From: an uncultured Alphaproteobacteria bacterium
GTDB taxonomy: Bacteria > Pseudomonadota > Alphaproteobacteria > CAAHEQ01 > UBA3637
Assembly (NCBI GenBank): GCA_905236245.1
Contig: CAJOPC010000004.1
Location: 6,079 to 70,078, forward strand
Length of the DNA: 64,000 nucleotides
Direction of reading: 5' to 3'
The number at the start of each line of letters is the position of its first letter. Position 1 is the first letter of the stretch. Positions 349 to 48,737 of the stretch are shown here, one piece after another. The position numbers and the translations under genes are program-made. Under the pieces are notes generated by a model, which worked only from the letters and a program-made list of their open reading frames with translations, was not told the DNA's origin and did no database searches.

Positions 349-1224
349 TTATTGACATAATGCAAAACTGCCATAGCAGTGGTTTGTAGGAGATATATTT
401 CCACCATAAAACCCTATCGTGGGCGCATCCATGTTAGCACCTGCATTTATAAACCAAAAACCATTAATGTATCCAAAAGCCTGCATTAATTCATCTAGAA
501 CCGTGCTATATCTTACTTTATTCGCGTTAGTATACCAATTACGATCCCACTCACATGTTTGGCCACTAGCACAACATCCCCCAGAGTAATACCCATTTAC
601 TACAAGTGAATCTGAATTACTTTCATAACATTCAAATTTGCTGATATCTAACAAATTCATACCATGAGCCTTACACCAATTATCCGCTGCCCACCATGTT
701 ATCTCTTGCGTGTTTCTCCTTACTAAACCAAGAGTATTTGTTATCTCATCCTCATATTCATCAGCACTCATACAAACTCCTTTATCTGGTCTATCAGGCA
801 ATATCACCGGCGGAGGGCCATCAATGATACGTGCATCCAAATGACAAAAACACTTCTCATATCCATTTTCAACACACCAATCATTACAATCTCTATTACT
901 TATACAATTACCATCTAAATGTGTTTCTGTCCCACAAGGATCTTGTTCATACGATAAATACACATTTCCATTGGCACACACTGTACAAGATCCATCTGAA
1001 TTATGCTCTAAACCAGCTTCACATTTGGCAATACATGTATCATTCCAAACGTCCTCGTCATCTGTGCACACGACTTTGCTTCCCTCACCTCCAATATGCA
1101 AACTAATAGCATCAACACCTGTTCCACGATAAATAGAAGATTTTCGGCTCTTACCACCACCGCCAAAAGCCAACACACTTGTTGCCACCAAAATCGCTGT
1201 TCCAAATAATAAAATCTTTTCCAT
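349..1224 (-). CDS. Secreted cysteine-rich protein, family member P1 (conserved leader plus C-type-lectin-like C-terminal domain)
   Basis: The internal Met MEKILLFGTAILVATSVLAFGGGGKSRKSSIYRGTGVD matches the leader of four other paralogs. The module CTVCANGNVYLSYEQDPCGTET and the motif WWAADNWCKAHGMNLLDIS are shared with P2 and P3. The ATG lies at 1222-1224 (rev). Confidence 0.75.
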   Translation of the reverse strand: MEKILLFGTAILVATSVLAFGGGGKSRKSSIYRGTGVDAISLHIGGEGSKVVCTDDEDVWNDTCIAKCEAGLEHNSDGSCTVCANGNVYLSYEQDPCGTETHLDGNCISNRDCNDWCVENGYEKCFCHLDARIIDGPPPVILPDRPDKGVCMSADEYEDEITNTLGLVRRNTQEITWWAADNWCKAHGMNLLDISKFECYESNSDSLVVNGYYSGGCCASGQTCEWDRNWYTNANKVRYSTVLDELMQAFGYINGFWFINAGANMDAPTIGFYGGNISPTNHCYGSFALCQ

Positions 1225-1353
1225 GGTAGACCCTTCCAATATCACAAACTGCTTTCAAACTAAGCCTTTTTCCCATAAAAGTCAACCATTAAAAAACGCT
1301 TGAAAAAAAATTCATTTTATACGATAATACTCTTATTAAAGAAAGGCGATAAA

Positions 1354-2454
1354 ATGGGATTTAATTGTGGGATTGTCGGATTACCAAATGTAGGCAAATC
1401 AACTTTGTTTAATGCACTAACAGCGACGGTAAATGCTCAAGCGGCGAACTATCCGTTCTGCACGATTGAACCCAATGTGGGCCGTGTGGCTGTACCAGAC
1501 AATCGCCTAGATGAATTGCAAAAAATAGATAAAGCCGCAAAAATTGTGCCAACGCAGTTGGAATTTGTGGACATTGCCGGGCTTGTGCGTGGAGCCAGCA
1601 AAGGTGAAGGCCTCGGCAACCAATTTTTGGGCAACATCCGCGAGGTCGATGCCATTATTCACGTCCTCAGATGTTTTGAAAACACGGATATTGTGCATGT
1701 GGAAGGTTCCATTAATCCTATTCGTGATGCCGAAACGGTGGATACAGAATTGATGCTGGCCGATTTGGAAAACTTGGAAAAACGCTTGGCCGGTGTTGCC
1801 AAAAAAGCTCAAACTGGCGACAAAGAAGCTAAACAATGGGTGACCGTGATTGAGCCTGCGCTTGCTTTATTAAAAGAAGGAAAACCCGCACGCTTAGCTA
1901 TTCCGGAAGATCCCGAAATGAAAAAATTATTTAATCAATTATGTTTGTTGACGGCCAAACCGGTGCTGTATGTATGCAATGTGGATGAGGCCAGCGCCGC
2001 TACGGGAAATGAATTTTCTGCAAAAGTTGCAGAAATGGCCGAAAAGCAAGGCAATACATCCGTCGTCATTTCCGCCAACATTGAACAAGAAATTGCACAA
2101 CTACCGCTTGCTGAACAACCGGAATTTTTGGCCACTTTAGGTCTGGAAGAAACAGGTCTTTCACGCATTATTAAAGCCGGTTATAAACTATTGGGTTTGG
2201 AAACTTTCTTTACATCTGGCCCAACAGAAGCCCATGCTTGGACCATGCGCAAAGGCACTTTGGCCCCTCAAGCCGCCGGAATTATTCATACCGACTTTGA
2301 GCGGGGTTTCATTCGTGCAGAAGTGATTTCATATAATGATTATGTGACAGATGGAGGAGAAAGTGGCGCTCGCGAAAAAGGGCACTTGCGCCAGGAAGGA
2401 AAAAGTTATATAATGCAAGACGGAGATGTGGTTCATTTCTTGTTTAATGTTTAA
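1354..2454 (+). CDS. ychF: Ribosome-binding ATPase YchF (Obg-family GTPase)
   Basis: [23 protein letters not shown]-loop. It has a C-terminal TGS-like domain and is full length. I chose the internal Met at 1354 as the start because the upstream ORF extension is A/T-rich non-coding sequence. Confidence 0.9.
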
Positions 2455-2467
2455 ATAGGGGGCAAAA

Positions 2468-2905: not shown

Positions 2906-2908
2906 AAA

Positions 2909-7750: not shown

Positions 7751-7751
7751 C

Positions 7752-9608: not shown

Positions 9609-10184
9609 CTATGAATCTAAGATCTCCGAAAGAAGTTGTGGAAAAGTATTGTATCCTGCCGCCGAGTTAAAATGTCCTGCTTGTTGAACCATTTTAATTT
9701 CTGCTTCAATTTTTTGTGCAAAATCAAGCGATACAGAGTTAGGAACATAAGGGTCATTTTCTGAAATAAAACACATTCTTTTTTCAGATAAGTTGGCCAC
9801 TTCTTGAAAATCATTTTTAATGAAAAATGGCTCATTTATAAGATCAAACTCAGGCGCATGTAATTTTTGGTATAAGGGGGCAACGAAATAGAGCCCTTTA
9901 ACTTTTAGCTTCGTATCCAGCAGATAATCTGTAATAAAAGCAGGGCCTAAACTATGCCCAATAAAGGATGTTTGAGCCCCAAAGAAAGGACGATAAACAT
10001 CCAAAACGCGAAACCAATTTTCATAATTTTGAAAGCCTATTCCGCAAGGAAATTGTGGAACTAAGACATTATAGCCTTTGGATTCCAACTGTTGAAAAAG
10101 CCAAGGAAACCAATTCTCAAATGGGGAGCCATAGCTTCCATGCACTATCACAAAATCATACACTTTTTCTTTAGTTTCAGACAT
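9609..10184 (-). CDS. Alpha/beta-hydrolase fold serine hydrolase (YqiA/RBBP9-like)
   Basis: GHSLG nucleophile elbow and a conserved VIVHG N-terminus. Size 191 aa. Confidence 0.6.
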   Translation of the reverse strand: MSETKEKVYDFVIVHGSYGSPFENWFPWLFQQLESKGYNVLVPQFPCGIGFQNYENWFRVLDVYRPFFGAQTSFIGHSLGPAFITDYLLDTKLKVKGLYFVAPLYQKLHAPEFDLINEPFFIKNDFQEVANLSEKRMCFISENDPYVPNSVSLDFAQKIEAEIKMVQQAGHFNSAAGYNTFPQLLSEILDS

Positions 10185-10274
10185 TTTTTATCCTTTCCTT
10201 GAATGGGTATTATTTTAGCCGAGTTATAAATATTTTGCAACTAAAATTAAAACTTCAATAGGTCAATTTGCTGT

Positions 10275-10300
10275 GCCAATTTTTTGAAATCCTCTAAATT
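10275..10300. repeat. 26-bp direct repeat copy A (gccaattttttgaaatcctctaaatt)
   Basis: 23 of 26 positions identical to 11716..11741. The two copies flank the acyltransferase gene. Confidence 0.55.
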
Positions 10301-10327
10301 GTTAGCCCGATATTCTGTAAGTATGCA

Positions 10328-10402
10328 GTACCAATAAAAATACCGTCCAATTTGGAACGATTTTCCTTTACCTTTCCAAGAGCTTATGCGGGTTCGATTG
10401 TG
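10328..10402. repeat. Direct repeat copy 2 (duplicate of the tRNA-Leu 3' end and terminator region, no tRNA body)
   Basis: gtaccaataaaaataccgtccaatttggaacgattttcc..., about 75% identity over roughly 75 nt with 9426..9500. Confidence 0.7.
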
Positions 10403-10591
10403 GGGACGTAAAAAAGGCTCAAAAACCGTAAATCATCGGATTCTTAAAATTTATTTCTTTAAAAAATCAATCAGTTAAATAAATTCCAGCCCAATCAGAA
10501 TTCCAACAATTAACAAGAAATTGAATAGTCTATTGTATTTTATAGAGTAATCTGATACGATAAAAAAGATAAAGAAAGAATAAAAGATTAT

Positions 10592-11665
10592 ATGAAAAAT
10601 GAAAATGAAATTTGGATTAGTGTTTTAACAGCAATTTCATGTATTGCTGTTGTGTATTTACACGTAAATAACATTTTTTGGCAGCACCCTAACGGCCTTT
10701 TGTGGATTACCTCAAATATTATAGAATGTTTATTTTACTTTGCAGTTCCTATATTTTTAATGATTACGGGATATACTTTATCAGATTATAGGGAAAGATA
10801 TGACACAAAAACATTTATAAAGAAGAGAACGATACGTACATTTATTCCTTTTATTTTTTGGTCATCTGTCTTTTTCTTTGTTTACGGGAAAAGAAATTTT
10901 TTTAACAGCATAATTAACATTGAAATAGAAAAAATATATAAATTTTTTCCAGGCTTATTCTCTTGCTATTTAGCTATTATATTCCTTAGTCTTTTTCAGA
11001 GTAAAAAGAAAATTTTCAGTTGGCTTTTTTTATGGTGCTTTATCAGCTATTCAATTATTCCTTTTTTAAGGAAATGTGGTATCTTACATATTTCAGATGC
11101 ATGGAAAAATCCAATTGGTTGCAGTTATTTACTATTTATTTTTCTAGGATATACTTTAGGACATGCAAAATTTCAAAAAAAAGAAAGAATATTACTATAC
11201 ATTTTAGGCTTGATAGGCTTATTATCTCATATAATTGGAACGCATTTGAATTCCCCACCAGATGGACGCATAAGTTTACTCTTTAAGGGATACAGGAATT
11301 GGCCTTGTGTTCTTTATTCTACTGCAATATTTATTTATTTTAAGTATTCTGATTGGACTTTTCTAACAAAAAATAAAATACTGACTCGATTATTGGAAAC
11401 TGTCATTTCATGCAGTCTTGGAATTTACTTAGTCCATGGTTATTTTGTATATCACTTGCTGCCAAGTATTTTTACTAAATTTGGGCATAAAGTTTTTGTT
11501 AACTCAAATTACTATAGAATTATCGCCCCCCTTATCATTGTATTAGGAATAGCTTTCTTAATTATAGCCGTTTCAAAACTCATCCCTTCAAAATTTCACT
11601 GCTTATTAGGTTATAAAAAAATAAAATTGACAAGAACCGAGCTTGATCTTAATAAAAAAAGTTGA
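10592..11665 (+). CDS. Acyltransferase family 3 membrane protein (O-acetyltransferase of surface polysaccharide/LPS)
   Basis: About 10 TM helices and an N-terminal motif typical of acyltransferase_3 proteins. Very AT-rich codon usage. Confidence 0.65.
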   Translation: MKNENEIWISVLTAISCIAVVYLHVNNIFWQHPNGLLWITSNIIECLFYFAVPIFLMITGYTLSDYRERYDTKTFIKKRTIRTFIPFIFWSSVFFFVYGKRNFFNSIINIEIEKIYKFFPGLFSCYLAIIFLSLFQSKKKIFSWLFLWCFISYSIIPFLRKCGILHISDAWKNPIGCSYLLFIFLGYTLGHAKFQKKERILLYILGLIGLLSHIIGTHLNSPPDGRISLLFKGYRNWPCVLYSTAIFIYFKYSDWTFLTKNKILTRLLETVISCSLGIYLVHGYFVYHLLPSIFTKFGHKVFVNSNYYRIIAPLIIVLGIAFLIIAVSKLIPSKFHCLLGYKKIKLTRTELDLNKKS

Positions 11666-11715
11666 TTTGGAATGTCAGTGTTCTGAATTAAAATTTCAAG
11701 AGCTCCATCTGCAGG

Positions 11716-11741
11716 GCCAACTTTTTGAAATCCGCGAAATT
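11716..11741. repeat. 26-bp direct repeat copy B (gccaactttttgaaatccgcgaaatt)
   Basis: See copy A. Confidence 0.55.
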
Positions 11742-11847
11742 TGAGTTTTGGTATTATCCAAGCTAATTACGCTATAAAACACAAATTTATGTTGACAAAT
11801 TCTGTCATAATACAGTACGCTAGTGTCACTAGTTTGGGTTGTAACAC

Positions 11848-13377
11848 ATGTATTTGAAGTTTTTCTTTTGTTTTTTTATTATATTGCTGCTACCTCTTTG
11901 GTCGGTGACTTTTCGGAGCGATTTTTTGTCTTTAATGGCCGGGCTTTCTTTTCTAATGGGGATTTTTTGCTTCACCTTGTCATCTGTTTCAATCTTAAAA
12001 AGAATAAAATATCTTAAATTTTTAAGGATTTTTATTTTAATATCTTCAAGTATATTTTACATCCTATATCTAATTCCAATATCCACAGTTTTTCAAGGTC
12101 TCACTTCCAACGATATTGTCGCTGTTTTTCAAACAAATGGAGCCGAAGCATTTGACTATCTTGCAGACAACTTAAAAATTTATGTGTTCATTCCTTTGGC
12201 CACTATTTTGGCTATCTTCATCTGTCTATGTATCAAAAATGTAGATAAATATTGTTTTGTTAAAAATCAAAAAGAAGCTGTTTTATTCTTACTTGCCAGC
12301 ATTGTTTTTATATGGTTCTACCAAACTAATGCGCTCACTATACCGATATACGATGCCGCTGATAAAATTGAACGATATTATGCCTTCTATAATAATTTAA
12401 AAAACAGAGAATATCCCAAATCCATAGAAAAAAACACCAAAGAAGGAATTTATGTCGTCGTTATTGGAGAAAGTCAAAATAGAGATTTTATGTCCGTTTA
12501 CAAACCTACCGAATACGATACGACACCTTTTTTATCAAGTATAAAATCAAGCAAAAATTGGTTCTTCTTTGATAATGCTTACTCTTGCCATGTTTATACC
12601 ATCGCAACATTAACTTACGCATTGACCCAAAAAAATAACTATAACAATTTGGACCTTTCAGAAAGCTATTCCATTGCGCATATGTTACATGAATTCGACA
12701 CTTACTGGCTCAGCAATCAAAAAGCAGTCGGCTATTACGGCGAACAAATAGCAGAAATTGGCCTACAAACAAAACATTCAACATTTATTAATAAATCCTT
12801 CGTCAAAGGGGATCCATATGATGAAGAACTCTTAAAATACCTGCCCAAAGAATCATCGTTAGTAAAAACAACTATTATATTTATTCATTTAATGGGAAAT
12901 CATCCAAATTATCGCAAAAGATATCCTGAAAAATTTGAAAAATACCCCAATACTTATGCCAATTCAATTTTATATAACGATTATATTGTTGAACAAATAT
13001 ACAATCATTTTGCATCCATGCGCAATTTTTCAGCTTTGATATATTTTTCAGATCATGGAGAAGATACAGAATGTGCCTGCCACAATCCTTCTAAATTTAC
13101 ATGGGAGATGACAAAAATTCCTTTTTATATCTATTTATCAGATAATTATATCAAACAACATCCTCAAAAAATTAGTACATTAAAAAAACATTTACATACC
13201 CCTTTTACAAATGATTTGTTCTTTGAAACATTTTTAGGCATATTAGACATTACAGACAAAAGATTTTACGCGCCAGAAAATGATCTTTCCAACTCCAATT
13301 ATAATCATACAAAATCAGATTTGACTACTTTTCATGGAGAAAAGAGTTTAGCCGAATATACAACCATAATACCATAA
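11848..13377 (+). CDS. Phosphoethanolamine transferase (EptA/LptA-like sulfatase-fold membrane protein)
   Basis: N-terminal multi-TM domain plus a periplasmic sulfatase domain with YVVVIGESQNRD and HLMGNH motifs. Very AT-rich. Confidence 0.7.
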   Translation: MYLKFFFCFFIILLLPLWSVTFRSDFLSLMAGLSFLMGIFCFTLSSVSILKRIKYLKFLRIFILISSSIFYILYLIPISTVFQGLTSNDIVAVFQTNGAEAFDYLADNLKIYVFIPLATILAIFICLCIKNVDKYCFVKNQKEAVLFLLASIVFIWFYQTNALTIPIYDAADKIERYYAFYNNLKNREYPKSIEKNTKEGIYVVVIGESQNRDFMSVYKPTEYDTTPFLSSIKSSKNWFFFDNAYSCHVYTIATLTYALTQKNNYNNLDLSESYSIAHMLHEFDTYWLSNQKAVGYYGEQIAEIGLQTKHSTFINKSFVKGDPYDEELLKYLPKESSLVKTTIIFIHLMGNHPNYRKRYPEKFEKYPNTYANSILYNDYIVEQIYNHFASMRNFSALIYFSDHGEDTECACHNPSKFTWEMTKIPFYIYLSDNYIKQHPQKISTLKKHLHTPFTNDLFFETFLGILDITDKRFYAPENDLSNSNYNHTKSDLTTFHGEKSLAEYTTIIP

Positions 13378-13400
13378 AAATACTTAAATAAAGAAATAAA

Positions 13401-13922
13401 ATGGCCAACAGGAAAATCTTTTTAAAACAACTTTCAAATAGTTATCAGCTTAGACGCTTAACAAAAGAGGATATTTCCTGCGTTTTAGAATTATGCAAAG
13501 GAAATCCATATTATTATAAACATTGTCCACCATCTCCAACGCCGGAAAACATCAAACGAGATATGCGGGCACTACCTCCCAGGACAACAAAAAAAGACAA
13601 AAGATATATTGGATTTTTCCAAGGCGCCGAATTAATTGCCGTTATGGATTTAATTTTCAATTATCCGAATTCTGAAACTTGTTTTATAGGATTTTTTATG
13701 ATGAATAAGAAATATCAAGGTCAAGGCATCGGCTCTCAGATTATTCAAAACGCGTTGGAATATTTAAAAAATTTTTATAAAACTGTTCGCTTGGGCTATG
13801 TTTCCACCAATGAACAAGCAAAAAGGTTTTGGTTAAAAAATGGTTTTAAATACACCGGCAAAGAATATCGAGACTCTCAATATCTTTATGTTGTTAAAAT
13901 AATGGCCAAAGAATTAAAATAA
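13401..13922 (+). CDS. GNAT family N-acetyltransferase
   Basis: GFFMMNKKYQGQGIGSQII acetyl-CoA binding motif (Q/RxxGxG/A). Confidence 0.7.
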   Translation: MANRKIFLKQLSNSYQLRRLTKEDISCVLELCKGNPYYYKHCPPSPTPENIKRDMRALPPRTTKKDKRYIGFFQGAELIAVMDLIFNYPNSETCFIGFFMMNKKYQGQGIGSQIIQNALEYLKNFYKTVRLGYVSTNEQAKRFWLKNGFKYTGKEYRDSQYLYVVKIMAKELK

Positions 13923-14092
13923 TTATATATGAATTTTTCCACTTGCTTTTGATAAAAAAAAGAATTAAACTGGCAAAGTTTGGATACTAGGAGGGATATG
14001 AGACCGTTGGCCAACGCAAGTTTAATTCATGGCGGCCGTTTAGAAAACGGATATGGTTTTGCCCCCTCAAAACAAGATTTAATGACTATGGA

Positions 14093-16404: not shown

Positions 16405-17055
16405 ATGGAAAAGATAGATATTTTTGATGAAGAATTTAACGCAATAGAACCTTTTTCTACAACAATAGATGTTGTTCATCAAAAAGGCCTTTGGCATCAA
16501 ACATTTGCTTGTTGGATTGTCAATGCCAAAGAAAACAAAATCTTTTTACAATTGCGCGGTCCCAAAAACAGAATCGGACCAAATACTTTTGACGCGTCGG
16601 CAAGCGGCCATTTGTCTGCCGGAGAAAAACCGATAGATGGCTTTCGTGAGGCCGAAGAAGAATTGGGAAAGAATCTAAACCTAACCGATAAAACTTTTTT
16701 GGGAATAAACAGAAATGTCATTATACAAGGATCTTATATAAATCGTGAATTTTGTCATGTATATATTGCAAAAACGAACAGCCCTTTAACCGACTTTGGC
16801 TTGCAAAAGGGAGAAGTGTCCGGCCTCTTTGCTATGAATATCGATGAGGCGATTGACCTTTTTGCGGGGGCCGTAGAAAAGGTCCAAATTGACGGCAAAG
16901 TATGGCAAGAAGGAGGCTATCAAAACATTTCTCGCACTGTGACAACAAAAGATTTTTGCTCCTATCATGACCGAGTGGATATTTCAGGCTATTATTTAAA
17001 AGTTATGATGATGGCAAAACGCTATATCAAAGGCCAAAAACCGCTCAGAATTTAG
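16405..17055 (+). CDS. NUDIX hydrolase
   Basis: Nudix box GHLSAGEKPIDGFREAEEELG. Confidence 0.7.
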   Translation: MEKIDIFDEEFNAIEPFSTTIDVVHQKGLWHQTFACWIVNAKENKIFLQLRGPKNRIGPNTFDASASGHLSAGEKPIDGFREAEEELGKNLNLTDKTFLGINRNVIIQGSYINREFCHVYIAKTNSPLTDFGLQKGEVSGLFAMNIDEAIDLFAGAVEKVQIDGKVWQEGGYQNISRTVTTKDFCSYHDRVDISGYYLKVMMMAKRYIKGQKPLRI

Positions 17056-17071
17056 CTAACAAATCTTAAAA

Positions 17072-17686
17072 CTATCTAACCTCTATTTCATCTAAAGAAT
17101 CGATCAATGGATATTCCCACGCGTTTGGCAAATTGAAGTGCCACCATTCATGGGGCAATCCTTCCAAGCCAATGCGAGCCATCATTTCCTCTAAAAGTCG
17201 ACGATTATTTTTTTGTTCTTCCGTGATATCGGGCCCATCATAATCTCTATGGCATTTTTTTAAATACGCCGGATAATTAGGATCTTTTTCATACCCCGGA
17301 TAAAAAGCATCTGGCTCTGTTTGAAAAGAAAGAGGAACACCATTGATATCCGCTAAATAACAGTCAATAGCAACGCCCCGCGAATGAAAACCTCTTTTTG
17401 AATCCGCTTTTGGAGGTGGCGCAATATACGGTTTTATGTAATCTGGCGCATTTTCATACATAAACTTTTGAACGGCCAAAGGTCTAAAAGCATCATAAAT
17501 AACTAAAATTAAATTACGATCCCGCAACTCTTTTTCCAATTGCATTAAACAATCATATAACTTTGGATGCACTAAGGCCTCTGTCAAACCAAAATCTGCA
17601 TACATATCTTTATAAAAAGAATTATTTGTGGTTGCATACAACAATTTAGATTGAATCCACGGGGAAGAAATGCGTTTTAAAATCAT
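17072..17686 (-). CDS. ddpX: D-alanyl-D-alanine dipeptidase (VanX/DdpX, peptidase M15D)
   Basis: DAFRP, HSRGVAIDCYL and EWWHF motifs characteristic of VanX-type zinc dipeptidases. Confidence 0.75.
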   Translation of the reverse strand: MILKRISSPWIQSKLLYATTNNSFYKDMYADFGLTEALVHPKLYDCLMQLEKELRDRNLILVIYDAFRPLAVQKFMYENAPDYIKPYIAPPPKADSKRGFHSRGVAIDCYLADINGVPLSFQTEPDAFYPGYEKDPNYPAYLKKCHRDYDGPDITEEQKNNRRLLEEMMARIGLEGLPHEWWHFNLPNAWEYPLIDSLDEIEVR

Positions 17687-27773: not shown

Positions 27774-28177
27774 TTGTCATCACTTTTTGCTTCATTATTT
27801 TTCACAAAATCAACAACATACTCATCAAATTCTTTTTGTGTTTCTGAACTCCAACCAAGAATATAATGATCGCCCATACAGAACAAAGGTGTGCCAAACT
27901 GGGATTTATTCAGCTTAAATTTTGCAACACAAGCAAGAGCCAAATCCAAATTATAACGAGAAGTGACATCCCGCCACTGTATTTTGAGATTCGGATATTT
28001 GCGGGTCAGATCCCGTTTGGCAGCCTCACAATGTATACAACCTTGCCGTGTGAACACATAAATTTGGTCTGGTTTTAACTCATTAATCGACAGCGCCTGA
28101 ACACCTTTACTAAAGCTCAAGCAGGAACAAAACACGATCCAAATAGAGAATAAAACCCTATACATGAAACTACTCAA
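27770..28177 (-). CDS. Secreted glutaredoxin/thioredoxin-fold protein (CxxC)
   Basis: Signal peptide, CIHC active site, and a C-terminal TPLFCMGDHYILGW glutaredoxin-like motif. Confidence 0.6.
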   Translation of the reverse strand: MSSFMYRVLFSIWIVFCSCLSFSKGVQALSINELKPDQIYVFTRQGCIHCEAAKRDLTRKYPNLKIQWRDVTSRYNLDLALACVAKFKLNKSQFGTPLFCMGDHYILGWSSETQKEFDEYVVDFVKNNEAKSDDK

Positions 28178-28748
28178 TGCAACAATCCACGGCTTTACGC
28201 ACTACGGATTTCAACCGGCCGAACAAAGAATTACTAACAGGGGCTTCCGCTTCTTTTTTAACAGGCGCCGCAACCTTTAAAGCTTCGACTTCCTTCTTCA
28301 CAGCGTCCAAATCATCGGGCTTCCATTGAATATCTTTGGCATCGACTAAATTCATATTCAATCCCCAGAAAAGGCAATACAGGTCATATGCATTATTGAA
28401 TAATTGATAAGCCTCTTCCTTATTACCCATGGATTGTTGTTTAGTTCCAACTTCCATTAAACGCATAGCTGTCGCCAATAAGTGTTTAGAAATACACCAA
28501 ACTTCTCCTTCGTAACTCGGAATAATCTTTTGCATTAAATTCTTGCGCAATTCCCGCACATCTTGAACCATATCATAAAACGAATTTTTACCTGTTTTAG
28601 CTCCAGAAAAAATTAAATGCTCTTCAATAGAAATCAAATTCATAATTGCAATAGTCAAGTCCTGATCCGAAGACAAATCCTTTGGATTTTTCTTTTTTGC
28701 CTGATCAACACGTTCTACGAATTCCTTAACGCTTTCTGCTTTTTTCAT
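28170..28748 (-). CDS. Hypothetical protein (192 aa)
   Basis: The ORF overlaps the next gene by 8 nt, so it is probably in an operon. Confidence 0.45.
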   Translation of the reverse strand: MKKAESVKEFVERVDQAKKKNPKDLSSDQDLTIAIMNLISIEEHLIFSGAKTGKNSFYDMVQDVRELRKNLMQKIIPSYEGEVWCISKHLLATAMRLMEVGTKQQSMGNKEEAYQLFNNAYDLYCLFWGLNMNLVDAKDIQWKPDDLDAVKKEVEALKVAAPVKKEAEAPVSNSLFGRLKSVVRKAVDCCIE

Positions 28749-37060: not shown

Positions 37061-37456
37061 TTAGCGTTTATTTGCTTTAACCATCTCTGCCGCAGTTCTA
37101 ATAAGTCCCATATTTTGCTCTTCGGTTATCCGCTCTTCTTCTTCCGTTTGACGTCTATAGGTTCCATCTTGTCCTCTAAACAACTTGACGTATGAATTGG
37201 GAACTGTTTCCCCCTTCTCATCCACTTTGCGAATCACCATGTGATCTGGTTTAGACTCATCTTTCTTTTCGGAACCACTCATATTCCATGTTGTCATTTC
37301 TACATTACCACTAAGGTCAACGTCAGCGGGAATACCGCTAACAACTATTTCGTGACGGTCGCTTCTATATTTTTCTCCCCAAATAGCTGTCTGAGTTTTT
37401 CCTACTTGACGAACTCTTTCTAACTTATAACCCCCTGTTAATGTATATCCTGGCAT
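37061..37456 (-). CDS. Hypothetical protein (131 aa)
   Basis: ORF with an RBS-like sequence. I recognise no family. Confidence 0.4.
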   Translation of the reverse strand: MPGYTLTGGYKLERVRQVGKTQTAIWGEKYRSDRHEIVVSGIPADVDLSGNVEMTTWNMSGSEKKDESKPDHMVIRKVDEKGETVPNSYVKLFRGQDGTYRRQTEEEERITEEQNMGLIRTAAEMVKANKR

Positions 37457-38349: not shown

Positions 38350-39189
38350 TTACCTACACAATGGTGTAATAAATGGTCCATTTGATTTAGGACGAGAAAA
38401 ATTACCCACATCACTGTTATTAGCCGACACATTAAACATTGCACAGGAATTATCAGCTGAGTAATTAGAGCTGGTCCAAAAACTAACTGGTCCAAAATTT
38501 TGCCTCAGAGCAATAATCACAGCACTATAATGAGAATATACGAAATCTTCATGCTCTGGCAAAATAGTTTTATTCTCACATTGATAACAATTTTCCCAAT
38601 AATTATACCAAGGCCCTGCACTTTGACCAGATACACAACAAGAAGAGTATATACCGGAACCACCAGTAACTAGTGTTGAAGTATCACTCTGATAACAATT
38701 AAACTCGGCCACATCTATTAAAGATTTACCCTGTGCTTTGCACCAATTATCCGCAGACCACCAACTCATCCGTTCATATTTGTTAATGACTTCCCCTAAT
38801 CCTTCTATATTAACAGGGCCAAGCACATCTCCGATAGCGGTACAGGTTCCTGTATTTGGTTGTTCACAATTTGATCCATCCAAATTACAGTATTCGCCCT
38901 CATTACAATCCTCATTACTCTTACAACCATCAAAAATTGTTTCCGTACCACATGGATCTTCTTTGTATGACAAATACACATTACCATTGGCACAAACCGT
39001 ACATTTTCCAAATCTATCCTCTAACACGCCAGCGGCACAAGCGCCACCTTTTCCATTGATACGCACATCAACAGAGTCCACTCCTACTCCGCGATATACG
39101 GAGCTCTTACGACTTTTCCCGCCACCACCAAAGGCCAAAACACTTGTTGCCATTAAAAGTGCTGTTCCAAATAATAATATTTTATTCAT
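38350..39189 (-). CDS. Secreted cysteine-rich protein, family member P2 (conserved leader plus CTLD-like C-terminal domain)
   Basis: MNKILLFGTALLMATSVLAFGGGGKSRKSSVYRGVGVDS leader. The first ~105 aa match P3 at all but one position, after which the sequences diverge. WWSADNWCKAQGKSLIDVAEF motif. AAGGAG RBS. Confidence 0.8.
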   Translation of the reverse strand: MNKILLFGTALLMATSVLAFGGGGKSRKSSVYRGVGVDSVDVRINGKGGACAAGVLEDRFGKCTVCANGNVYLSYKEDPCGTETIFDGCKSNEDCNEGEYCNLDGSNCEQPNTGTCTAIGDVLGPVNIEGLGEVINKYERMSWWSADNWCKAQGKSLIDVAEFNCYQSDTSTLVTGGSGIYSSCCVSGQSAGPWYNYWENCYQCENKTILPEHEDFVYSHYSAVIIALRQNFGPVSFWTSSNYSADNSCAMFNVSANNSDVGNFSRPKSNGPFITPLCR

Positions 39190-39311: not shown

Positions 39312-40034
39312 TTACTTACACAATGCAGGAGCATTCATGCCTTGTCCACCCTGTCGGCCATCTCTTGGGCCAATATATTTATCAAAAGTGCGCACATAAA
39401 CACTCTTACAGATATCTATACCATCATTTACCCAAAACCAATTATAACTTATCTTATCCAAAACTGGTTGCCAATCTAAATGACATCCAGAACTTTCTTG
39501 ACACGTTTCACCATTGATAATGACACCACTAACACTGGAAGGATCAATACCAATATCTTCTAAGCCAATCAACTGTTTTCCCCTAGCAGCACACCAATTT
39601 TCAGCAGCCCAATAGGAAAAAGAATCTTGGCTAATTATACAACCATCATCAAAAGTTGTTTTAATATCATTCTCATTTAATGGAGAACACACGCCTGTAT
39701 CTGGCTGTTCACAATTACTACCTGTCAAATTGCAATATTCATTTTCTCCACATTGTACATTACTTACACAACCTGTTACACTTGTTTCCGTACCACATGG
39801 ATCTTCTTCGTATGACAAATACACATTACCATTGGCACAAACCGTACATTTTCCAAATCTATCCTCTAACACACCAGCAGCACAAGCACCACCTTTTCCA
39901 TTAATATGCACATCAACAGAGTCCACTCCTACTCCGCGATATACGGAGCTCTTACGACTTTTCCCACCTCCACCAAAGGCCAAAACACTTGTTGCCATTA
40001 AAAGCGCTGTTCCAAATAATAATACTTTGTTCAT
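39312..40034 (-). CDS. Secreted cysteine-rich protein, family member P3 (tandem paralog of P2)
   Basis: Leader and first ~105 aa match P2 at all but one position (K/V at the fourth residue). Divergent C-terminus still containing YWAAENWCAARGKQLIGL. Confidence 0.8.
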   Translation of the reverse strand: MNKVLLFGTALLMATSVLAFGGGGKSRKSSVYRGVGVDSVDVHINGKGGACAAGVLEDRFGKCTVCANGNVYLSYEEDPCGTETSVTGCVSNVQCGENEYCNLTGSNCEQPDTGVCSPLNENDIKTTFDDGCIISQDSFSYWAAENWCAARGKQLIGLEDIGIDPSSVSGVIINGETCQESSGCHLDWQPVLDKISYNWFWVNDGIDICKSVYVRTFDKYIGPRDGRQGGQGMNAPALCK

Positions 40035-40238: not shown

Positions 40239-40267
40239 ATTATATGTCATCCATTTTTAAATAGCAA
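40239..40267 (-). promoter_or_regulatory. Consensus sigma70 promoter of P3 (same module as P2)
   Basis: TTGCTA...TATAAT, identical to the P2 promoter sequence. Confidence 0.6.
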
Positions 40268-43998: not shown

Positions 43999-44715
43999 TC
44001 ATTGATTACATGTGTCAGGAGACCAACTACCCCCAGGGGTCACTTCACCAGCACAACATCCCCAAGACCAACTTCCACCATCACACTCCGGCCCATGTCG
44101 AGATAAACAATATGGGGTTGTATCTTTTGGACAACAAATATAGCCTATACACACATTGTTTTCATCGTACTTGTAACAAACGGGTTCAGTTCCCGGAGTG
44201 GTACAACATAAATCTGATCCATCTAGCCCTTTACCTTCAAATACTTCACCATTACAACATGTATAATTATCTCCATATGAAAAACGACCACTCAAATAAG
44301 GCTTTCCTCCACTGGGGCAACACAAAGACCAGTTATAAACACAATTTCCATCAGCATCACGAGTAAAACAAAAAAGGGTGCCGGTGCAACACATTGAAGC
44401 CCACGACCCTACTTGGCGAGAAGCCGATTCTCCTGCTGGGCAACAAAAATTCAATTCTTCATTACAACACTGGTATTCGCCTGATTCGTTCTGACTACAT
44501 ACATTATCACCATAACAACAACCTTTACCGCACTTAACACCATCTGAGCACGTCTCCTCTGAATCACTATCTTTTCCACTAAAATGCACACCGATAGAAT
44601 CAACGCCTACGCCACGATAAACGGAAGATTTGCGACTCTTTCCTCCTCCGCCGCCAAAGGCTAAAACAGAGGTTGCTACCAAAATTGCCATTCCAAATAA
44701 TAATACCTTTTTCAT
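43999..44715 (-). CDS. Secreted cysteine-rich protein, family member P4 (conserved leader plus tandem CC-x-G repeat C-terminal domain)
   Basis: MKKVLLFGMAILVATSVLAFGGGGGKSRKSSVYRGVGVDSIGVHF leader. The C-terminus contains many CC pairs (CCYGDN, CCNEE, CCPAGE, CCTGT, CCPSGG, CCNGE, CCTTPG, CCPKD, CCAGE). AGGAG RBS. It lies 18 nt downstream of the preceding gene. Confidence 0.8.
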   Translation of the reverse strand: MKKVLLFGMAILVATSVLAFGGGGGKSRKSSVYRGVGVDSIGVHFSGKDSDSEETCSDGVKCGKGCCYGDNVCSQNESGEYQCCNEELNFCCPAGESASRQVGSWASMCCTGTLFCFTRDADGNCVYNWSLCCPSGGKPYLSGRFSYGDNYTCCNGEVFEGKGLDGSDLCCTTPGTEPVCYKYDENNVCIGYICCPKDTTPYCLSRHGPECDGGSWSWGCCAGEVTPGGSWSPDTCNQ

Positions 44716-44733: not shown

Positions 44734-45156
44734 TTAATGGTGATGATGATGGTGCCTGATTGTCCGCAAATAATCCTGTCTTTCACGATACGAATCTTGA
44801 TAAGTGGATTCATCACGTTCCATTTCGGCATGCTCTTGAATACATGTCCATAACGCCTCTTTTGAAATAGCGCTATCTTTAAAGTAATTCTCACAAGTCG
44901 TGTTTAACTTATCAATTTTTTGCTCAATTCTATCTGCCAATTCTTTGCTAACGGAACCTGACATATGATACAAACGCCTAAATAATTTTTCATAAAACAA
45001 ATGGCACTTCATATTCTGTTCTGAACCAGGCTGAAAACCCAACACTTCTTCACATTGACGATTCAAAGCTTCTTGATAACGTGCCTCACCAATTCGATCA
45101 GAGTCTGCCATCGGGTTAAGTAACAAAGAAGTTAATAAAATACTTCCCCAAAACAC
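44734..45156 (-). CDS. Small secreted protein with a natural C-terminal hexahistidine tail (putative metal-binding), co-transcribed with P4
   Basis: GTG start with an AAGGAGG RBS. Hydrophobic N-terminus. Ends ...TIRHHHHHH-stop. The likely promoter TTGCAT-17-TATTAT is upstream. Confidence 0.6.
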   Translation of the reverse strand: MFWGSILLTSLLLNPMADSDRIGEARYQEALNRQCEEVLGFQPGSEQNMKCHLFYEKLFRRLYHMSGSVSKELADRIEQKIDKLNTTCENYFKDSAISKEALWTCIQEHAEMERDESTYQDSYRERQDYLRTIRHHHHHH

Positions 45157-45261: not shown

Positions 45262-46410
45262 TCAATAATTAGATTTTCCTTGATTAAAAAAACCTAAATG
45301 CCGGTTTGTCTTACCTATTTGATTAAAAGAAACTTCCACCATTTTGGTGTAATTAATTCTTTTATCTTTATCTTTAGAAATAATTTGCTCTACACTTACT
45401 CTGGATTCACCAACTTTAGCAAAAATACCATGGAAATACCGCTTAAAAGAAGCAACCAACTCACGCAACTGAACCGGATTCGATGCTTCTCGGACTAAGT
45501 CCGATGCAAACGAAGTCACAGCAGCGCGCTTTAAATCAAGCAACTGTCGTTCCCGCGCGGCGGGAGAAAGATGAATGACTTTATCATACAATCCTTCATC
45601 AATCAATTTAGCAGATTTCAAATACTCCAAAGCGGTTACAATACGCACCTGAGCTCTTTGAAATAAACACTCTTCCTTTTTACCATGAATGTATTGGAAA
45701 GCAACCGGTCGCAAACCATAATCACGAATATCCGCCAAGGCTTTATAAATTCGAAAATTATTTAATTTCTGCAAAGCGCTAGAAGCGCGCATTGTTCTAA
45801 CTCCTAAAGGGGAACGACCTTTTCCGATCGCCATTTTATTCATCCACACCCAACCCGCATCTTCATCAACAGGAGTCGCCCGTTGGCACATTAACTCATC
45901 TACAACACTCACCTTTCCCTTTTGATCTGTGCGCACTTCTTCCATATACAATGCAGTGCTTAAGGCTGCAACCAATTTAATTGGTTTGTCCAAACGAAGA
46001 CATAAATTTATATAAGCATCAAAATTTTGATCAGCCAAATACTTTAAAAGCAAGGAAACTTTTTTTGGGGGCGTAGAAATAAACGCAGCTCCCGCATTCT
46101 CTGGATTCTGAATAGAATTTTGAATTTCTTCCGTTACCATGGAATCTTGCCAACGTTCCATATGATTAAATAATGCTTCATAATCCACAGGATCCACCAA
46201 TCCAAAAACAGCAAACAAAGGTAAATCAGAATAGCTATGATACGCCCGCCACGCAACCAAATCTTTGGCATGCGCTTTCGAATCAAAAAACTTTTTCATG
46301 ATCCTTCTCTGAGACAACCGAACTCGTTCTGAATTCAATGTATCTCTGGCAACTTCTACGCGTTGTATCCATTGAAAATCTCGTTTATCATTTGCCATCA
46401 TACACTCCAA
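45262..46410 (-). CDS. Hypothetical protein (382 aa)
   Basis: Long ORF. I recognise no family. Confidence 0.45.
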   Translation of the reverse strand: MECMMANDKRDFQWIQRVEVARDTLNSERVRLSQRRIMKKFFDSKAHAKDLVAWRAYHSYSDLPLFAVFGLVDPVDYEALFNHMERWQDSMVTEEIQNSIQNPENAGAAFISTPPKKVSLLLKYLADQNFDAYINLCLRLDKPIKLVAALSTALYMEEVRTDQKGKVSVVDELMCQRATPVDEDAGWVWMNKMAIGKGRSPLGVRTMRASSALQKLNNFRIYKALADIRDYGLRPVAFQYIHGKKEECLFQRAQVRIVTALEYLKSAKLIDEGLYDKVIHLSPAARERQLLDLKRAAVTSFASDLVREASNPVQLRELVASFKRYFHGIFAKVGESRVSVEQIISKDKDKRINYTKMVEVSFNQIGKTNRHLGFFNQGKSNY

Positions 46411-46517
46411 ACAAAACTAATTGGTCGCTATTGTACAAGATTTTTTAATTATGTCAAGTTTTTACATACTATAAAAAGCCCCACCAGTTGGCAGGGCTTT
46501 CGTATTGTCTGAAAAAA

Positions 46518-47702
46518 TTACTTTTCCAAAATGGCAACACCCGGCAAAGATTTGCCTTCCATCCATTCCAAGAAAGCACCACCGGCCGCAGACACATAGG
46601 TCATGTCGGCTTTTACACCTGCTTTTTTTAAAGCGGAAACGGTATCACCACCGCCTGCGACGGATGTCAAAGCGCCGGCCTTTGTTTGATCGGCCACCAC
46701 TTTGGCAATTTCGTTTGTGGCTTTGTCAAAAGGTTTGATTTCAAATGCGCCCACCGGGCCGTTCCAAATCAATGTCTTTGCATTTTTAATCACATCAGCA
46801 AAAGCAGCCACAGATTTTTCTCCAATATCTAACAATACTTTGCCGGCAGGTACCGCATTTACATCGGATGTATGGGGCTCTTGACCTTCAGCAAAGGCAT
46901 CGGCCCATACCAAATCTACAGGCAAAACAATTTTGCAATTACCGGCATTAGCCAAAATGTTTTTAGCTGTATCAATCATATCTGGTTCAACCAAAGAGCC
47001 TTCGCCCATTGGAATTCCTTGTGCAGCCAAAAAAGTATGAGCCATACCGCCACCAATGAGCAAGTAATCTACTTTCTTCACCAAGTTACCCAATAAATCC
47101 AATTTCGTGGAAACTTTGCTACCACCCACCAAAGCAACGGCTGGATGGACAGGGTTACCCAAAGCTTTGTCCAAAGCCTCCAATTCTTCCTGCATCAAAC
47201 GACCTGCGCCATTTGGCAACAAATGTGCCATACCTTCTGTGGAGGCATGCGCACGATGTGCCGTTGAGAAAGCATCATTGATATAAATATCCATACCATG
47301 TGCCAAACTTTCGGCGAATTCGCGATCGTTGGCTTCTTCTCCTTCATAGAAGCGTAAGTTTTCCAACAAAATAACTTCGCCTGGTTGCATAGCTGCTACA
47401 GCAGCATCACGAGCTTCGCCCACACAATCGTCAATGAATTTCACGGAAACACCTGCCGCTTTTTCCAAAGCAGGAGCCAAAAAAGCCATAGAAAATTCCG
47501 GATTCTTTTGACCTTTCGGACGACCAAAGTGACTAGCCACCACGGCTTTACCACCATGTTCAATAATATATTTCAAAGTCGGCACAAAACGATCGATACG
47601 AGTTGTATCTGTGATTTGTCCATCCTTGGCAGGCACATTCAAGTCTGCACGAATAAAAACTGTTTTACCGTTAAAATCAAAATTATCCAAAGTATTAAAC
47701 AT
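46518..47702 (-). CDS. pgk: Phosphoglycerate kinase
   Basis: MFNTLDNFDFNGKTVFIRADLNVP N-terminus and conserved Pgk motifs throughout. The start is set at the internal Met. Confidence 0.95.
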   Translation of the reverse strand: MFNTLDNFDFNGKTVFIRADLNVPAKDGQITDTTRIDRFVPTLKYIIEHGGKAVVASHFGRPKGQKNPEFSMAFLAPALEKAAGVSVKFIDDCVGEARDAAVAAMQPGEVILLENLRFYEGEEANDREFAESLAHGMDIYINDAFSTAHRAHASTEGMAHLLPNGAGRLMQEELEALDKALGNPVHPAVALVGGSKVSTKLDLLGNLVKKVDYLLIGGGMAHTFLAAQGIPMGEGSLVEPDMIDTAKNILANAGNCKIVLPVDLVWADAFAEGQEPHTSDVNAVPAGKVLLDIGEKSVAAFADVIKNAKTLIWNGPVGAFEIKPFDKATNEIAKVVADQTKAGALTSVAGGGDTVSALKKAGVKADMTYVSAAGGAFLEWMEGKSLPGVAILEK

Positions 47703-47822
47703 TTTTGTCCTTTCTTTTGTTAAAATAATTGTGTCCATTGTTTTAATCTTTTTTTAAAAAAATTGCAAGAGGAATTTATTTGAAGCCTTAACAAAAATCC
47801 CCCGACAAATCGGGGGAAAATA

Positions 47823-48737
47823 TTACAGGACACACGTATCGGGTTCATTTTTTGATCCTGGGGTAACTGTTCCAGGACAACATCTCCAAGAGGCACCACC
47901 ACAACATCCCTCATATCGGGAGACACAATAAGGCGTTTCTCCTTCACTACAACATGCTGCTTGATAATAGTAATTTTGTTGAATAAAAAACGATGTTACA
48001 CAATCTGCCTTGCCACATGCATATCCATATCCTCTACATTTTTCTCCGTTGGTTTCATATTCTGCACAATATCCTTTTTCTCCCTCTGCACAACAAATAT
48101 GTACAGTACAATTACCTGCATCATCATACTCCGCACAAACTGGTTTTTTCCCATCATAACAGCACAAATCAGCCCCATCCACGCCTTTCTCTTTATAAAC
48201 TTTTCCTCCATTAGAACAACACATATATTGATCTCCATAAGAAAATTTACCATTTATATAAGGCTCTCCATCACAACATAAATACTCTTTAGTACCATCA
48301 TCACGTTCATAAGGGCCATATACTTTCCCTCCAGTTGGGCAACAAGAAGTAGACGTACAATTATCTTCTGCATCTTTATAACTGCAAAACAATTTCCCAG
48401 CACAGCAAGTCGTCTCCCAATATCCTCTGAAGATACGATATGCTCCACCACTTATTGGGCAACAATGATTTAATTCTTCACTGCAGCACTGATACTCGCC
48501 AGACTCATTCTGCTTGCACACATTATCACCATAACAACAACCGCTGCCACATTTGATACCATCAGAACAGGTCTCTTTTCCTGAATCGTCATCTTTTCCA
48601 TTAAAATGTACACCGATAGAATCAATACCTGTGCCGCGGTAGACAGATGCCTTTCGACTTTTTCCGCCCCCACCACCAAAGGCAAAAACCGATGTTGCCA
48701 CCAAAATTGCCGTTCCGAATAATAAAACTTTTTTCAT
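47823..48737 (-). CDS. Secreted cysteine-rich protein, family member P5 (conserved leader plus CC-x-G repeat domain, P4-like)
   Basis: MKKVLLFGTAILVATSVFAFGGGGGKSRKASVYRGTGIDSIGVHFNGKDDDSGKETCSDGIKCGSGCCYGDNVC parallels P4. The C-terminus is longer and repeat-rich. Confidence 0.8.
   Translation of the reverse strand: MKKVLLFGTAILVATSVFAFGGGGGKSRKASVYRGTGIDSIGVHFNGKDDDSGKETCSDGIKCGSGCCYGDNVCKQNESGEYQCCSEELNHCCPISGGAYRIFRGYWETTCCAGKLFCSYKDAEDNCTSTSCCPTGGKVYGPYERDDGTKEYLCCDGEPYINGKFSYGDQYMCCSNGGKVYKEKGVDGADLCCYDGKKPVCAEYDDAGNCTVHICCAEGEKGYCAEYETNGEKCRGYGYACGKADCVTSFFIQQNYYYQAACCSEGETPYCVSRYEGCCGGASWRCCPGTVTPGSKNEPDTCVL

Follow-up and report, generated by a model that had tools for sequence, protein, structure and literature searches.

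The window analysed here, a stretch of 64,000 nucleotides of contig CAJOPC010000004.1 (positions 6,079 to 70,078; assembly GCA_905236245.1) from an uncultured alphaproteobacterium, carries five minus-strand genes for cysteine-rich proteins, P1 to P5, which begin with almost the same N-terminal leader and continue into divergent C-terminal parts, in the following called passengers (Table 1). All five open reading frames (ORFs) are present and intact where a first-pass annotation, made from the sequence alone, had placed them. The two architectures that it described are present too: P1 to P3 combine a CTVCANGNVYLSY…DPCGTET module with a part that leads from W-W-x-A-D-N-W-C to a terminal LC(Q/R/K), and P4 and P5 are rich in CC dipeptides and end in PDTC. 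According to the family alignment, P1 starts with the ATG at 1224 and not with the GTG upstream of it at 1245. In all five genes a Shine-Dalgarno-like AGGA or GGAG lies 6-10 nt 5' of the ATG, and their GC contents (0.39-0.43) are close to that of the window (0.389). By these and other expression signals each family gene looks like a separate transcription unit, being preceded by the terminator of the gene before it, a sigma-70-like site (a consensus match) and a ribosome-binding site (RBS), and in the case of P3 and P5 followed by a terminator of its own.

The leader comprises 47-48 amino acids (aa) that are 73-92% identical among the five proteins, which bears out the common N-terminus seen in the first-pass annotation. 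A 47-aa leader query finds exactly five sites in the window by tblastn (E 1e-21 to 1e-24), and no further window match to it lies below E 0.08. In the protein alignment the block M-x-K-x-L-L-F-G-x-A-x-L-x-A-T-S-V-x-A-F-G-G-G-G-K-S-R-K-x-S-x-Y-R-G-x-G-x-D is invariant in all five. Between non-tandem paralogues the leader DNA is 73-76% identical, so the similarity of the leaders does not reflect recent DNA copying. Over the 47 leader codons, non-tandem pairs have a synonymous divergence (dS) of 0.9-1.9, a nonsynonymous divergence (dN) of 0.07-0.20 and dN/dS ratios of 0.06-0.21 (Nei-Gojobori); dS is near saturation in all pairs but the tandem pair P2/P3. Such low ratios mean that the leader peptide is kept by purifying selection, and the segment of ~28 residues behind the signal peptide is under this selection too.

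An alignment of 169 leader sequences resolves three parts. The signal peptide consists of M-K/R-K and about 15 hydrophobic residues, ends in A-F-G-G and is 18-19 residues long in 127 of the 169 leaders. In the window proteins it reads M-K/N/E-K followed by ILLFGTAILVATSVL; by inspection, a charged n-region, a hydrophobic core and suitable residues at -3 and -1 agree with the Sec-type signal ending in V-L-A that had been proposed. The -3/-1 rule allows cleavage between V-L-A and F as well as between A-F-G and G, and because both sites obey it, signal peptidase may cut at the invariant AFGG itself. Next follows a linker of 14-17 residues rich in Gly, Ser/Thr and Lys/Arg/His, which differs among sub-lineages (GGGGKSRKSSVYRG, GGMFNHGSKSTTYKG, GGGGSGRKSTAFTS…) and keeps a spacing of 15-17 aa from F+1 to GVD in 129 of the 169 sequences. 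The third part, G(169)-V(158)-D(123)/N-A(113)/S-I(147)-G(158)-V(147)-H(162)-F/I-x-G(131), with counts out of 169, can be read from its sequence as a near-invariant amphipathic strand, G-V-[DN]-[AS]-I-G-V-H-[FI]-x-G. Basic residues (KSRK, GEKK) lie on its flanks, and the positions behind H-x-x-G are variable (K/E/D/N), with no conserved cleavage site there. Conservation over these ~28 residues thus extends far beyond what a signal peptidase needs, as the first-pass annotation had supposed.

In AlphaFold2 models built from family alignments, the predicted local distance difference test (pLDDT) score is below 50 for aa 1-48 of P2 and aa 1-52 of P5 and exceeds 90 in the passengers. The leader is thus predicted to be disordered and not to pack on the passenger, and since it lies outside the predicted fold, selection on it is presumably exerted by something external to the protein. 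Several known signal types were considered for the leader and rejected. A lipoprotein signal (signal peptidase II) does not fit, as there is no Cys in the first ~50 residues of the five proteins and the consensus L-A-F-G-G has none; the nearest sequence in the PDB is a lipoprotein signal (VLAFAGC, E 0.16), the likeness being limited to the signal peptide. The five window proteins do not have a type IV pilin or class III signal either, because the hydrophobic stretch precedes the Gly run and Glu+5 is missing. The segment before the double glycine is an unbroken hydrophobic Sec-type core devoid of acidic residues, which speaks against a double-glycine leader of a C39/ABC exporter. Sorting as an autotransporter, by a type IX secretion C-terminal domain or by PEP-CTERM was discarded because the C-termini vary by module, Pfam and NCBIfam give no match and the models contain no barrel. 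The leader pattern V-L-A-F-G-G…(13 aa)…G-V-D-A-I-G-V-H also resembles an RCC1-like blade of BLIP-II (PDB 1jtd_B, V-I-A-W-G-G-N…S-G-V-D-A-I-A); at E 0.85 this likeness is not significant and was taken as chance, and it is consistent with a beta-strand propensity.

The reach of the leader is much wider than the window. The profile search proposed in the first-pass annotation was run exhaustively with HMMER, using a profile of 21 sequences against 1.84 billion representatives of clusters at 50% identity, and returned 208 clusters at E<=1e-3 and 110 at E<=1e-10. In all 150 proteins listed, which range from 53 to 1981 aa, the match lies at or near the N-terminus. The leader thus heads at least 208 clusters. 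Word-indexed searches of 5.8 billion proteins detected 24 relatives of P2 and 20 of P5, none of them with a name or a Pfam domain. The same type of search with the leader alignment gave four short fragments only, a sensitivity artefact as the exhaustive search showed, and a leader scan of a genome collection gave 70 pattern matches, none confirmed by tblastn, possibly owing to low-complexity masking, so that it is uninformative on taxonomic range. With queries as short, Gly-rich and low in complexity as the leader, negatives from indexed or tblastn-confirmed searches are unreliable. Pfam and NCBIfam scans of the five window proteins found nothing that covers the leader, and the five together with ~90 relatives (giant, pilin-fused and 77 CC-rich ones) had no match above a curated threshold. 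Profile and peptide searches of PDB sequences with the leader gave nothing significant, and its motif strings had no match in the searchable literature. Leader and family had been noted as unrecognised, and they are indeed absent from Pfam, NCBIfam and that literature.

The count of five members made earlier proved too low. At least eight lie on one ~300-kb contig (among them P1, P3, P4, P5, P0010, P0022 and P0028), and in a second assembly a 238-kb scaffold carries a variant of P2 (P0001), P5 and P0028, with P0003 on another scaffold of the same sample. From these numbers we infer about a dozen or more members per genome. Judged by their sequences, the five genes are part of a large paralogous superfamily of exported disulfide-rich proteins whose only common element is the N-terminal handle, and which, as far as seen, appears limited to one lineage.

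The passengers of P1 to P3 end in a domain that the first-pass annotation had likened to C-type lectins. The AlphaFold2 model of P2 has a mean pLDDT of 79, rising above 90 from residue ~90, and Foldseek ranked the C-type-lectin-like superfamily first among PDB structures (E~0.1). Among 23 homologues W149, C150 and C278 (P2 numbering) are invariant, and W143, W144, A146 and W238, the last in FW[TVF], are at least 90% conserved. The hallmarks of a C-type-lectin-like domain (CTLD) were found: helix 1 contains W-x-x-A-x3-C, and a WIGL-like strand and a Cys partner at the C-terminal end are present too. Together with a double-loop alpha/beta fold that can be superposed on known CTLDs, they place P2 in the fold superfamily. 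According to the model, P2 carries a bona fide CTLD that is nearest to an adhesin tip, and P1 and P3 have the sequence hallmarks. The wider superfamily compared comprised CTLDs of natural killer (NK) receptors, intimin/invasin D3, snake-venom lectins and phage Mtd. So the fold proposed earlier stands for P2, with its hallmarks in P1 and P3, but a functional lectin does not: a calcium-dependent sugar-binding lectin was rejected since the CTLD part lacks the EPN/QPD + WND motif and P1 to P3 have no Pfam match to Lectin_C (PF00059) at E<=1. Protein-binding CTLDs also do without this motif, and a sugar-binding function is not implied by the fold. Profile searches of PDB sequences with both passenger types gave nothing significant. 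A variable protein of a diversity-generating retroelement (DGR), of the C-type lectin (CLec) fold, was likewise rejected, there being no template repeat or extra copy of the 3'-end DNA in the window and no reverse transcriptase among the scanned window ORFs of at least 150 aa.

In P4 and P5 the passenger is of a different kind. The model of P5 is all-beta, with ~20 short strands arranged as CC-bounded hairpins and a pLDDT above 90 for residues 60-220. The CC architecture and the PDTC end noted before are confirmed for both proteins; the number of CC dipeptides, put at about 10 tandem repeats there, is 9 in P4 and 12 in P5. Foldseek gave no PDB match to the P5 stack above a TM-score of 0.13, and a profile search of PDB sequences was empty. 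Like galaxin-like (PF24748) and granulin stacks, P4 and P5 consist of tandem CC-bounded units of ~12-21 residues that are predicted to form stacked beta-hairpins, and their motif CC-x6-H-CCP resembles the granulin signature. However, PF24748 is touched by only 2 of the 77 CC-rich relatives (best score 26.9 bits against a threshold of 28), P4 and P5 themselves have no match at E<=1, and there is no granulin or other PDB match. Membership in the galaxin or granulin families was rejected on these grounds, no profile match exceeding threshold and no PDB fold matching. As far as tools and literature show, the di-cysteine hairpin stack is undescribed. Upstream of P5 lies a (CA)11.5 tract ((TG)11.5 on the forward strand), the sole dinucleotide repeat that TRF finds in the 64 kb. 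Slipped-strand changes of this tract could switch P5 on and off or alter its level; its length is the same in the only other assembly seen (L022).

Across the leader family the passengers form a mosaic of many combinations, built from epidermal growth factor (EGF)-like C-x-C-x2-G-[YWF] units, the CC stack, the NGNVYLSY module and the CTLD, and no C-terminal element is common to the proteins. The median Cys content of the passengers is 10%, and 107 of 143 family proteins have an even number of Cys (~6 standard deviations from 50:50), which is what one would expect if practically every Cys were paired in a disulfide within an oxidising compartment. Odd counts occur in the window (P1 19, P2 17, P3 15, P5 37), and the unpaired Cys could form an intermolecular disulfide. 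A direct trace of module exchange is offered by P2 and P3. The upstream promoter/RBS region and the first ~270 nt of the two genes are ~96% identical, after which identity drops abruptly to near-random. P2 and P3 are a recent tandem duplicate, and the breakpoint is a recombination or module-swap junction. The module combinations across the family and this mosaic breakpoint lend support to the swapped modules proposed in the first-pass annotation, and indicate that modules of the family are exchanged by recombination.

The same passengers also occur behind another N-terminus. P0013, P0014 and P0018 have an NGNVYLSY + CTLD passenger but no leader; instead they carry …G-R-S-M-V-E-M-L-G-V-L-A-I-I-G-V-L-S…, which resembles the N-terminus of type IV pilins, followed by a domain of ~150 aa. 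The locus L027 encodes P0014 and another pilin-like protein, whose Cys-rich passenger differs. L027 has the PFOR…pgk arrangement of the window, and its Pgk is 94% identical, so that its source must be very closely related. In a metagenome-assembled genome (MAG) of the clade from roe deer, too, a pilin-like N-terminus is encoded next to pyrG (L002 2484..2594; PyrG 84% identical). One passenger repertoire thus seems to be carried on two alternative N-terminal handles in one lineage, and the pilin-type class builds surface filaments. The pilin-like fusions in the relative suggest that the passengers are displayed at the end of their N-terminal handle.

Table 1. Position of the family genes, their parts and associated signals (window coordinates unless a locus is named)
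Feature	Position	Strand	Remarks
P1	349..1224	minus	291 aa: leader, Cys-rich linker, NGNVYLSY module, knot, CTLD
P1 leader, aa 1-47	1084..1224	minus	tblastn E 4e-24
P1 CTLD, boundaries approximate	352..732	minus	WWAADNWC at aa 177, FWF at 256, end ALCQ; fold inferred from P2 model
P2	38350..39189	minus	279 aa: leader, NGNVYLSY module, knot, CTLD
P2 leader, aa 1-47	39049..39189	minus	tblastn; pLDDT < 50 in model
P2 middle part: C-x-V-C-A-N-G-N-V-Y-L-S-Y..DPCGTET module and disulfide knot (C-x-S-N-x-D-C...C...G-x-C)	38800..39045	minus	pLDDT 65-95
P2 CTLD, boundaries approximate	38353..38799	minus	
P3	39312..40034	minus	240 aa, tandem paralogue of P2; CTLD differs from that of P2
P3 leader, aa 1-47	39894..40034	minus	tblastn
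P3 CTLD, boundaries approximate	39315..39662	minus	YWAAENWC ... FWV ... ALCK
5' parts of P2 and P3 compared	38850..39189 vs 39694..40034		breakpoint at end of PCGTET module
P3 promoter-like site TTGCTA-17-TATAAT	40239..40267	minus	same element duplicated before P2, 39237..39265
Terminator-like hairpin between P3 and P2	39268..39296	minus	
P4	43999..44715	minus	238 aa: leader and di-cysteine hairpin stack; 28 Cys, 9 CC
P4 leader, aa 1-48	44572..44715	minus	tblastn
P5	47823..48737	minus	304 aa: leader and di-cysteine hairpin stack; 37 Cys, 12 CC
P5 leader, aa 1-48	48594..48737	minus	tblastn; pLDDT < 50 in model
P5 beta stack, ~20 short strands, hairpins bounded by CC pairs	47826..48569	minus	AlphaFold2 pLDDT > 90 for aa 60-220
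P5 promoter-like site TTGACA-18-CAAAAT	48932..48961	minus	consensus match only; just after terminator of FadL-like gene (48973..49004)
(CA)11.5 dinucleotide repeat between P5 promoter-like site and P5 start codon	48833..48855		no strand
Terminator-like hairpin 3' of P5	47798..47817	minus	
Pilin-like Cys-rich proteins of L027	L027 10001..11152 and 16845..18146		N-terminus G-R-S-M-V-E-M-L-G-x-L-A

We read the leader as an export or display tag that is recognised in trans, so that the proteins either cross the outer membrane or are retained on the surface, with the passengers as binding heads, and give this reading a probability of about 0.45. The proteins would be exported by Sec and then undergo DsbA-type oxidative folding in the periplasm. 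A partner encoded elsewhere in the genome would recognise the tag, whose amphipathic strand probably binds it by beta-strand augmentation, the Gly-rich linker serving as a flexible tether. The partner would move the protein over the outer membrane or keep it on the cell surface, and the passenger modules would act as ligand-binding, adhesin-like heads, the CTLD being of a calcium-independent, protein- or glycan-binding type. Diversity of the repertoire would come from duplication and swapped modules and not from programmed switching. A more far-reaching form of this idea is that the post-signal segment is the address label of an undescribed outer-membrane export or surface-anchoring pathway of uncultured gut Alphaproteobacteria, that it is functionally interchangeable with a type-IV-pilin N-terminus, and that it presents recombining eukaryote-like binding modules, namely C-type-lectin-like and EGF-like ones and di-cysteine hairpin stacks, to the host or to other microbes; this form is tentative and, as a whole, rather doubtful. 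Several findings count against a trans-recognised tag. No partner or dedicated secretion gene lies near the ~10 members examined, which makes the trans-acting partner pure inference. Disorder in the AlphaFold models is equally expected for a cleaved pro-region, and high Cys content, the only property common to all passengers, fits a role in folding or quality control as well as one in sorting. The odd Cys counts of P1, P2, P3 and P5, the weak profile support for the pilin-like N-terminus (PpdD-type E 0.01-0.03; TIGR02532 E 0.12) and the fact that the lineage is known for only a minority of the 208 clusters weigh on the same side.

The segment behind the signal peptide might instead be a conserved propeptide. 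It would call in an oxidoreductase or chaperone of the periplasm, or keep the passenger soluble during oxidative folding, and then be removed or irrelevant, the products being soluble toxin-, bacteriocin- or effector-like factors; conotoxin precursors follow the same logic. The one feature of nearly all passengers, their high Cys content (median 10%), would be explained in this way, and the even-Cys bias shows that disulfides matter; the predicted disorder of the segment, the basic residues flanking its strand and the lack of surface-anchoring machinery nearby would fit as well. Behind the strand, however, no cleavage site is conserved. Moreover, what replaces the segment in close relatives is a pilin-like N-terminus, a device for assembly or display and not a folding aid, and the giant members of 1,700-2,000 aa are unlike toxins or bacteriocins. 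We regard a pro-region as unlikely, though worth keeping in mind. Attachment inside the envelope is a further alternative, in which the mature N-terminus (F/G-G-G-G..., with a free amine and a basic patch) is joined, covalently in an L,D-transpeptidase-type reaction or not, either to peptidoglycan or to the outer membrane on its inner side, and the proteins act within the envelope. L,D-transpeptidase-type attachment has been described for N-termini of outer-membrane proteins in other Alphaproteobacteria, and the host is an alphaproteobacterium; the first residues that the mature protein is predicted to have (FGG/GGG) are invariant, and no outer-membrane translocator was found nearby. Yet CTLD, EGF-like and adhesin-tip-like modules and the pilin-like fusions in relatives suggest exposure to the outside, and conservation is highest in the internal strand GVDxIGVH and not only at the N-terminal residues. 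Such a tether is improbable.

The first-pass annotation had likened the genes to antigenic-variation repertoires, and a 5' handle might indeed serve recombination, the exchange of expressed and silent copies or on/off switching in a phase- or antigen-variable surface repertoire. The mosaic breakpoint of P2/P3, the (CA)11.5 tract between promoter-like site and start of P5 and the dispersed multi-copy nature of the family would be in line with this. All copies are complete genes with promoter-like site and RBS, however, truncated cassettes or extra DNA copies and DGR components are absent from the window, and the CA length is unchanged in one other assembly. In addition, leader DNA that is 73-76% identical with saturated dS (non-tandem pairs) is too diverged for frequent homologous exchange. 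With complete genes throughout, and neither silent cassettes nor template repeats nor reverse transcriptase in the window, the antigenic-variation claim is not upheld, and we judge variation of this type quite improbable. That the leader is merely a relic of duplication or gene conversion, with no function besides Sec targeting, would suit P2 and P3, which arose by recent tandem duplication and hardly differ in their 5' halves and upstream DNA; but in the other pairs dN/dS is 0.06-0.21 at near-saturated dS, and at least 208 clusters keep the strand motif although their linkers and passengers are no longer recognisably alike. Common descent as the only cause is already disfavoured and has the slightest chance of all.

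The genomic surroundings indicate a gut-associated host. The PyrG of the window is 93% identical to that of an Alphaproteobacteria MAG and 82-88% identical to those of other uncultured Alphaproteobacteria MAGs, from Hadza, Nepal, BRZ, roe-deer and sheep samples. This clade may be the one called RF32 in GTDB. A probable host association had been suggested earlier and is favoured by these closest relatives, which are gut MAGs; the diderm, AT-rich character assumed there agrees with ~39% GC and with genes for BamB and for FadL-like, AsmA-like and EptA-like proteins. Core genes in the window encode YchF, a DnaJ-like protein, FieF, Der, BamB, PyrG, an ABC-F protein, AsmA-like proteins, PFOR, Pgk, a FadL-like outer-membrane protein, GAPDH, a lytic transglycosylase, Mpl/LdcA-like enzymes, PhoH and MiaB-like proteins. 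Secretion-system, usher, curli, sortase and reverse-transcriptase genes were not found among the scanned window ORFs.

Single family genes recur in intergenic gaps beside core operons (L019, L023, L025/L026, L029, L031 and the window). P0003 lies directly 3' of rplQ, P0022 between pnp and htpG, P0029 between recA and hydABC, P0028 between a GNAT gene and dnaE, and P0131 5' of lnt-rpmJ-aroA; P4 and P5 lie around pgk, between gap/fadL and PFOR. No recurrent neighbour or operon partner appeared in ~10 member contexts, which all consist of housekeeping genes. Judged against L027, a conserved PFOR-orphan-pgk block seems to have received P4 and P5 by insertion. The orphan, a cytoplasmic-looking protein of 382 aa (45262..46410, minus strand), adjoins pgk and has no Pfam or NCBIfam match. 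It is 35% identical to its syntenic counterpart in L027 (3379..4725), next to a Pgk that is 94% identical, and thus belongs to a fast-evolving gene. Between P4 and this orphan lies a 140-aa ORF (44734..45156, minus strand; start codon uncertain) with an RHHHHHH tail and no Pfam or NCBIfam match.

Other parts of the window deserve mention. Two tandem paralogues on the minus strand (59380..60726 and 60739..62052; 25% identity, E 1e-13) contain HEAAH and HEGEH, respectively, both of the HExxH form. They have signal- or lipoprotein-like N-termini and no Pfam match, and may be secreted metalloproteases of an unnamed family. A stretch at ~10000..14000 is low in GC (0.30 versus 0.39) and was probably acquired horizontally as an islet for lipopolysaccharide modification; it encodes an Acyl_transf_3 protein (10592..11665) and an EptA/CptA-like phosphoethanolamine transferase (11848..13377). 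Four ORFs, at 17686..19338 (minus), 23441..24847 (plus), 28170..28748 (minus) and 37061..37456 (minus), have no signal peptide by eye and no Pfam match, the last of them no NCBIfam match either. These four ORFs and the 382-aa orphan make the window rich in lineage-specific proteins.

The system combines familiar and new elements. Known kinds are represented by the CTLD fold, by repertoires of modular adhesin-like proteins and by targeting regions at the N-terminus; undescribed, as far as searched, are the tag, the superfamily defined by it, the interchangeability of tag and pilin handle, and the hairpin stack with its di-cysteine pairs. N-terminal sorting signals past the signal peptide are rare in diderms, examples being the N22 segment of curli and the lipoprotein export signals of Bacteroidota. 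A tag that heads more than 200 otherwise unrelated disulfide-rich proteins, is under strong purifying selection and is replaced by a pilin-like N-terminus in a relative is a candidate for a new export or display route. The clade that carries it consists of common, uncultured gut Alphaproteobacteria, for which no functional studies were found. Its passengers, among them a CTLD nearest to the adhesive fibre tip of a predator and a hairpin stack that lacks a solved homologue, could plausibly mediate attachment to surfaces of the host or of microbes. The leader motif could also seed a new Pfam or NCBIfam model for proteins that are currently unnamed.

Among known systems, precursors of conotoxins, with a conserved signal and pro-region and a hypervariable Cys-rich mature part, and the variant-specific surface proteins (VSPs) of Giardia share with the window family the union of a conserved targeting region with a fast-diverging, disulfide-rich modular part in many paralogues. 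Unlike conotoxins, the window family belongs to the bacterial Sec pathway and periplasm, its passengers are multi-domain and reach ~1,900 aa, and there is no conserved processing site; in the VSPs, the conserved element is a C-terminal anchor, whereas here it is N-terminal. Closer in position are short segments right behind the Sec signal. The N-terminal 22 residues of mature CsgA are the curli secretion signal read by CsgG/CsgE, and the N-terminal donor strands of chaperone-usher pilins, such as GGTVHFKGEVV of FimA, are read in trans for assembly. The window tag is likewise short, Gly-rich or of beta-strand character and outside the fold, and its I-G-V-H-F-N-G-K resembles pilin donor strands, a likeness not confirmed by sequence searches. 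Unlike in these systems, no sequence relationship is demonstrable, curli or usher/chaperone genes were not found near any member, and the passengers are, according to the models, neither amyloid repeats nor incomplete immunoglobulin (Ig) folds. Assignment to the chaperone-usher pilins was rejected because the passengers are a CTLD or a hairpin stack and not an Ig fold, and neither usher nor chaperone was found among the scanned window ORFs.

CofB/TcpB-type proteins are minor type IV pilins with large C-terminal adhesin domains. The five window proteins differ from such tip pilins by a cleavable Sec signal (by inspection), a Gly-rich linker and a short strand, and they have neither a pilin helix nor a pilin globular domain. 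The close relative, in contrast, is like them in placing NGNVYLSY + CTLD or other Cys-rich passengers behind G-x4-E and a hydrophobic helix. For the CTLD, the closest comparison is Bd2740 of Bdellovibrio bacteriovorus, the calcium-independent C-type-lectin tip of a mosaic adhesive trimer fibre displayed on the surface (PMC10769870). Identity of the window CTLD to Bd2740 (PDB 8OKS) and other CTLDs is only 10-16%, and Pfam Lectin_C is not matched. It is preceded by small disulfide knots and not by a trimeric fibre or Ig-like domains, it contains extra Cys, and it is not linked to a DGR. Nevertheless, it shares with Bd2740 and the CTLD superfamily the W-x-x-A-x-x-W-C helix, the FW(T/V/F) strand and the C-terminal Cys, it dispenses with the calcium site as do Bd2740, Mtd and intimin (PMC10769870), and, as in Bd2740, it forms the C-terminal end of a modular exported protein.

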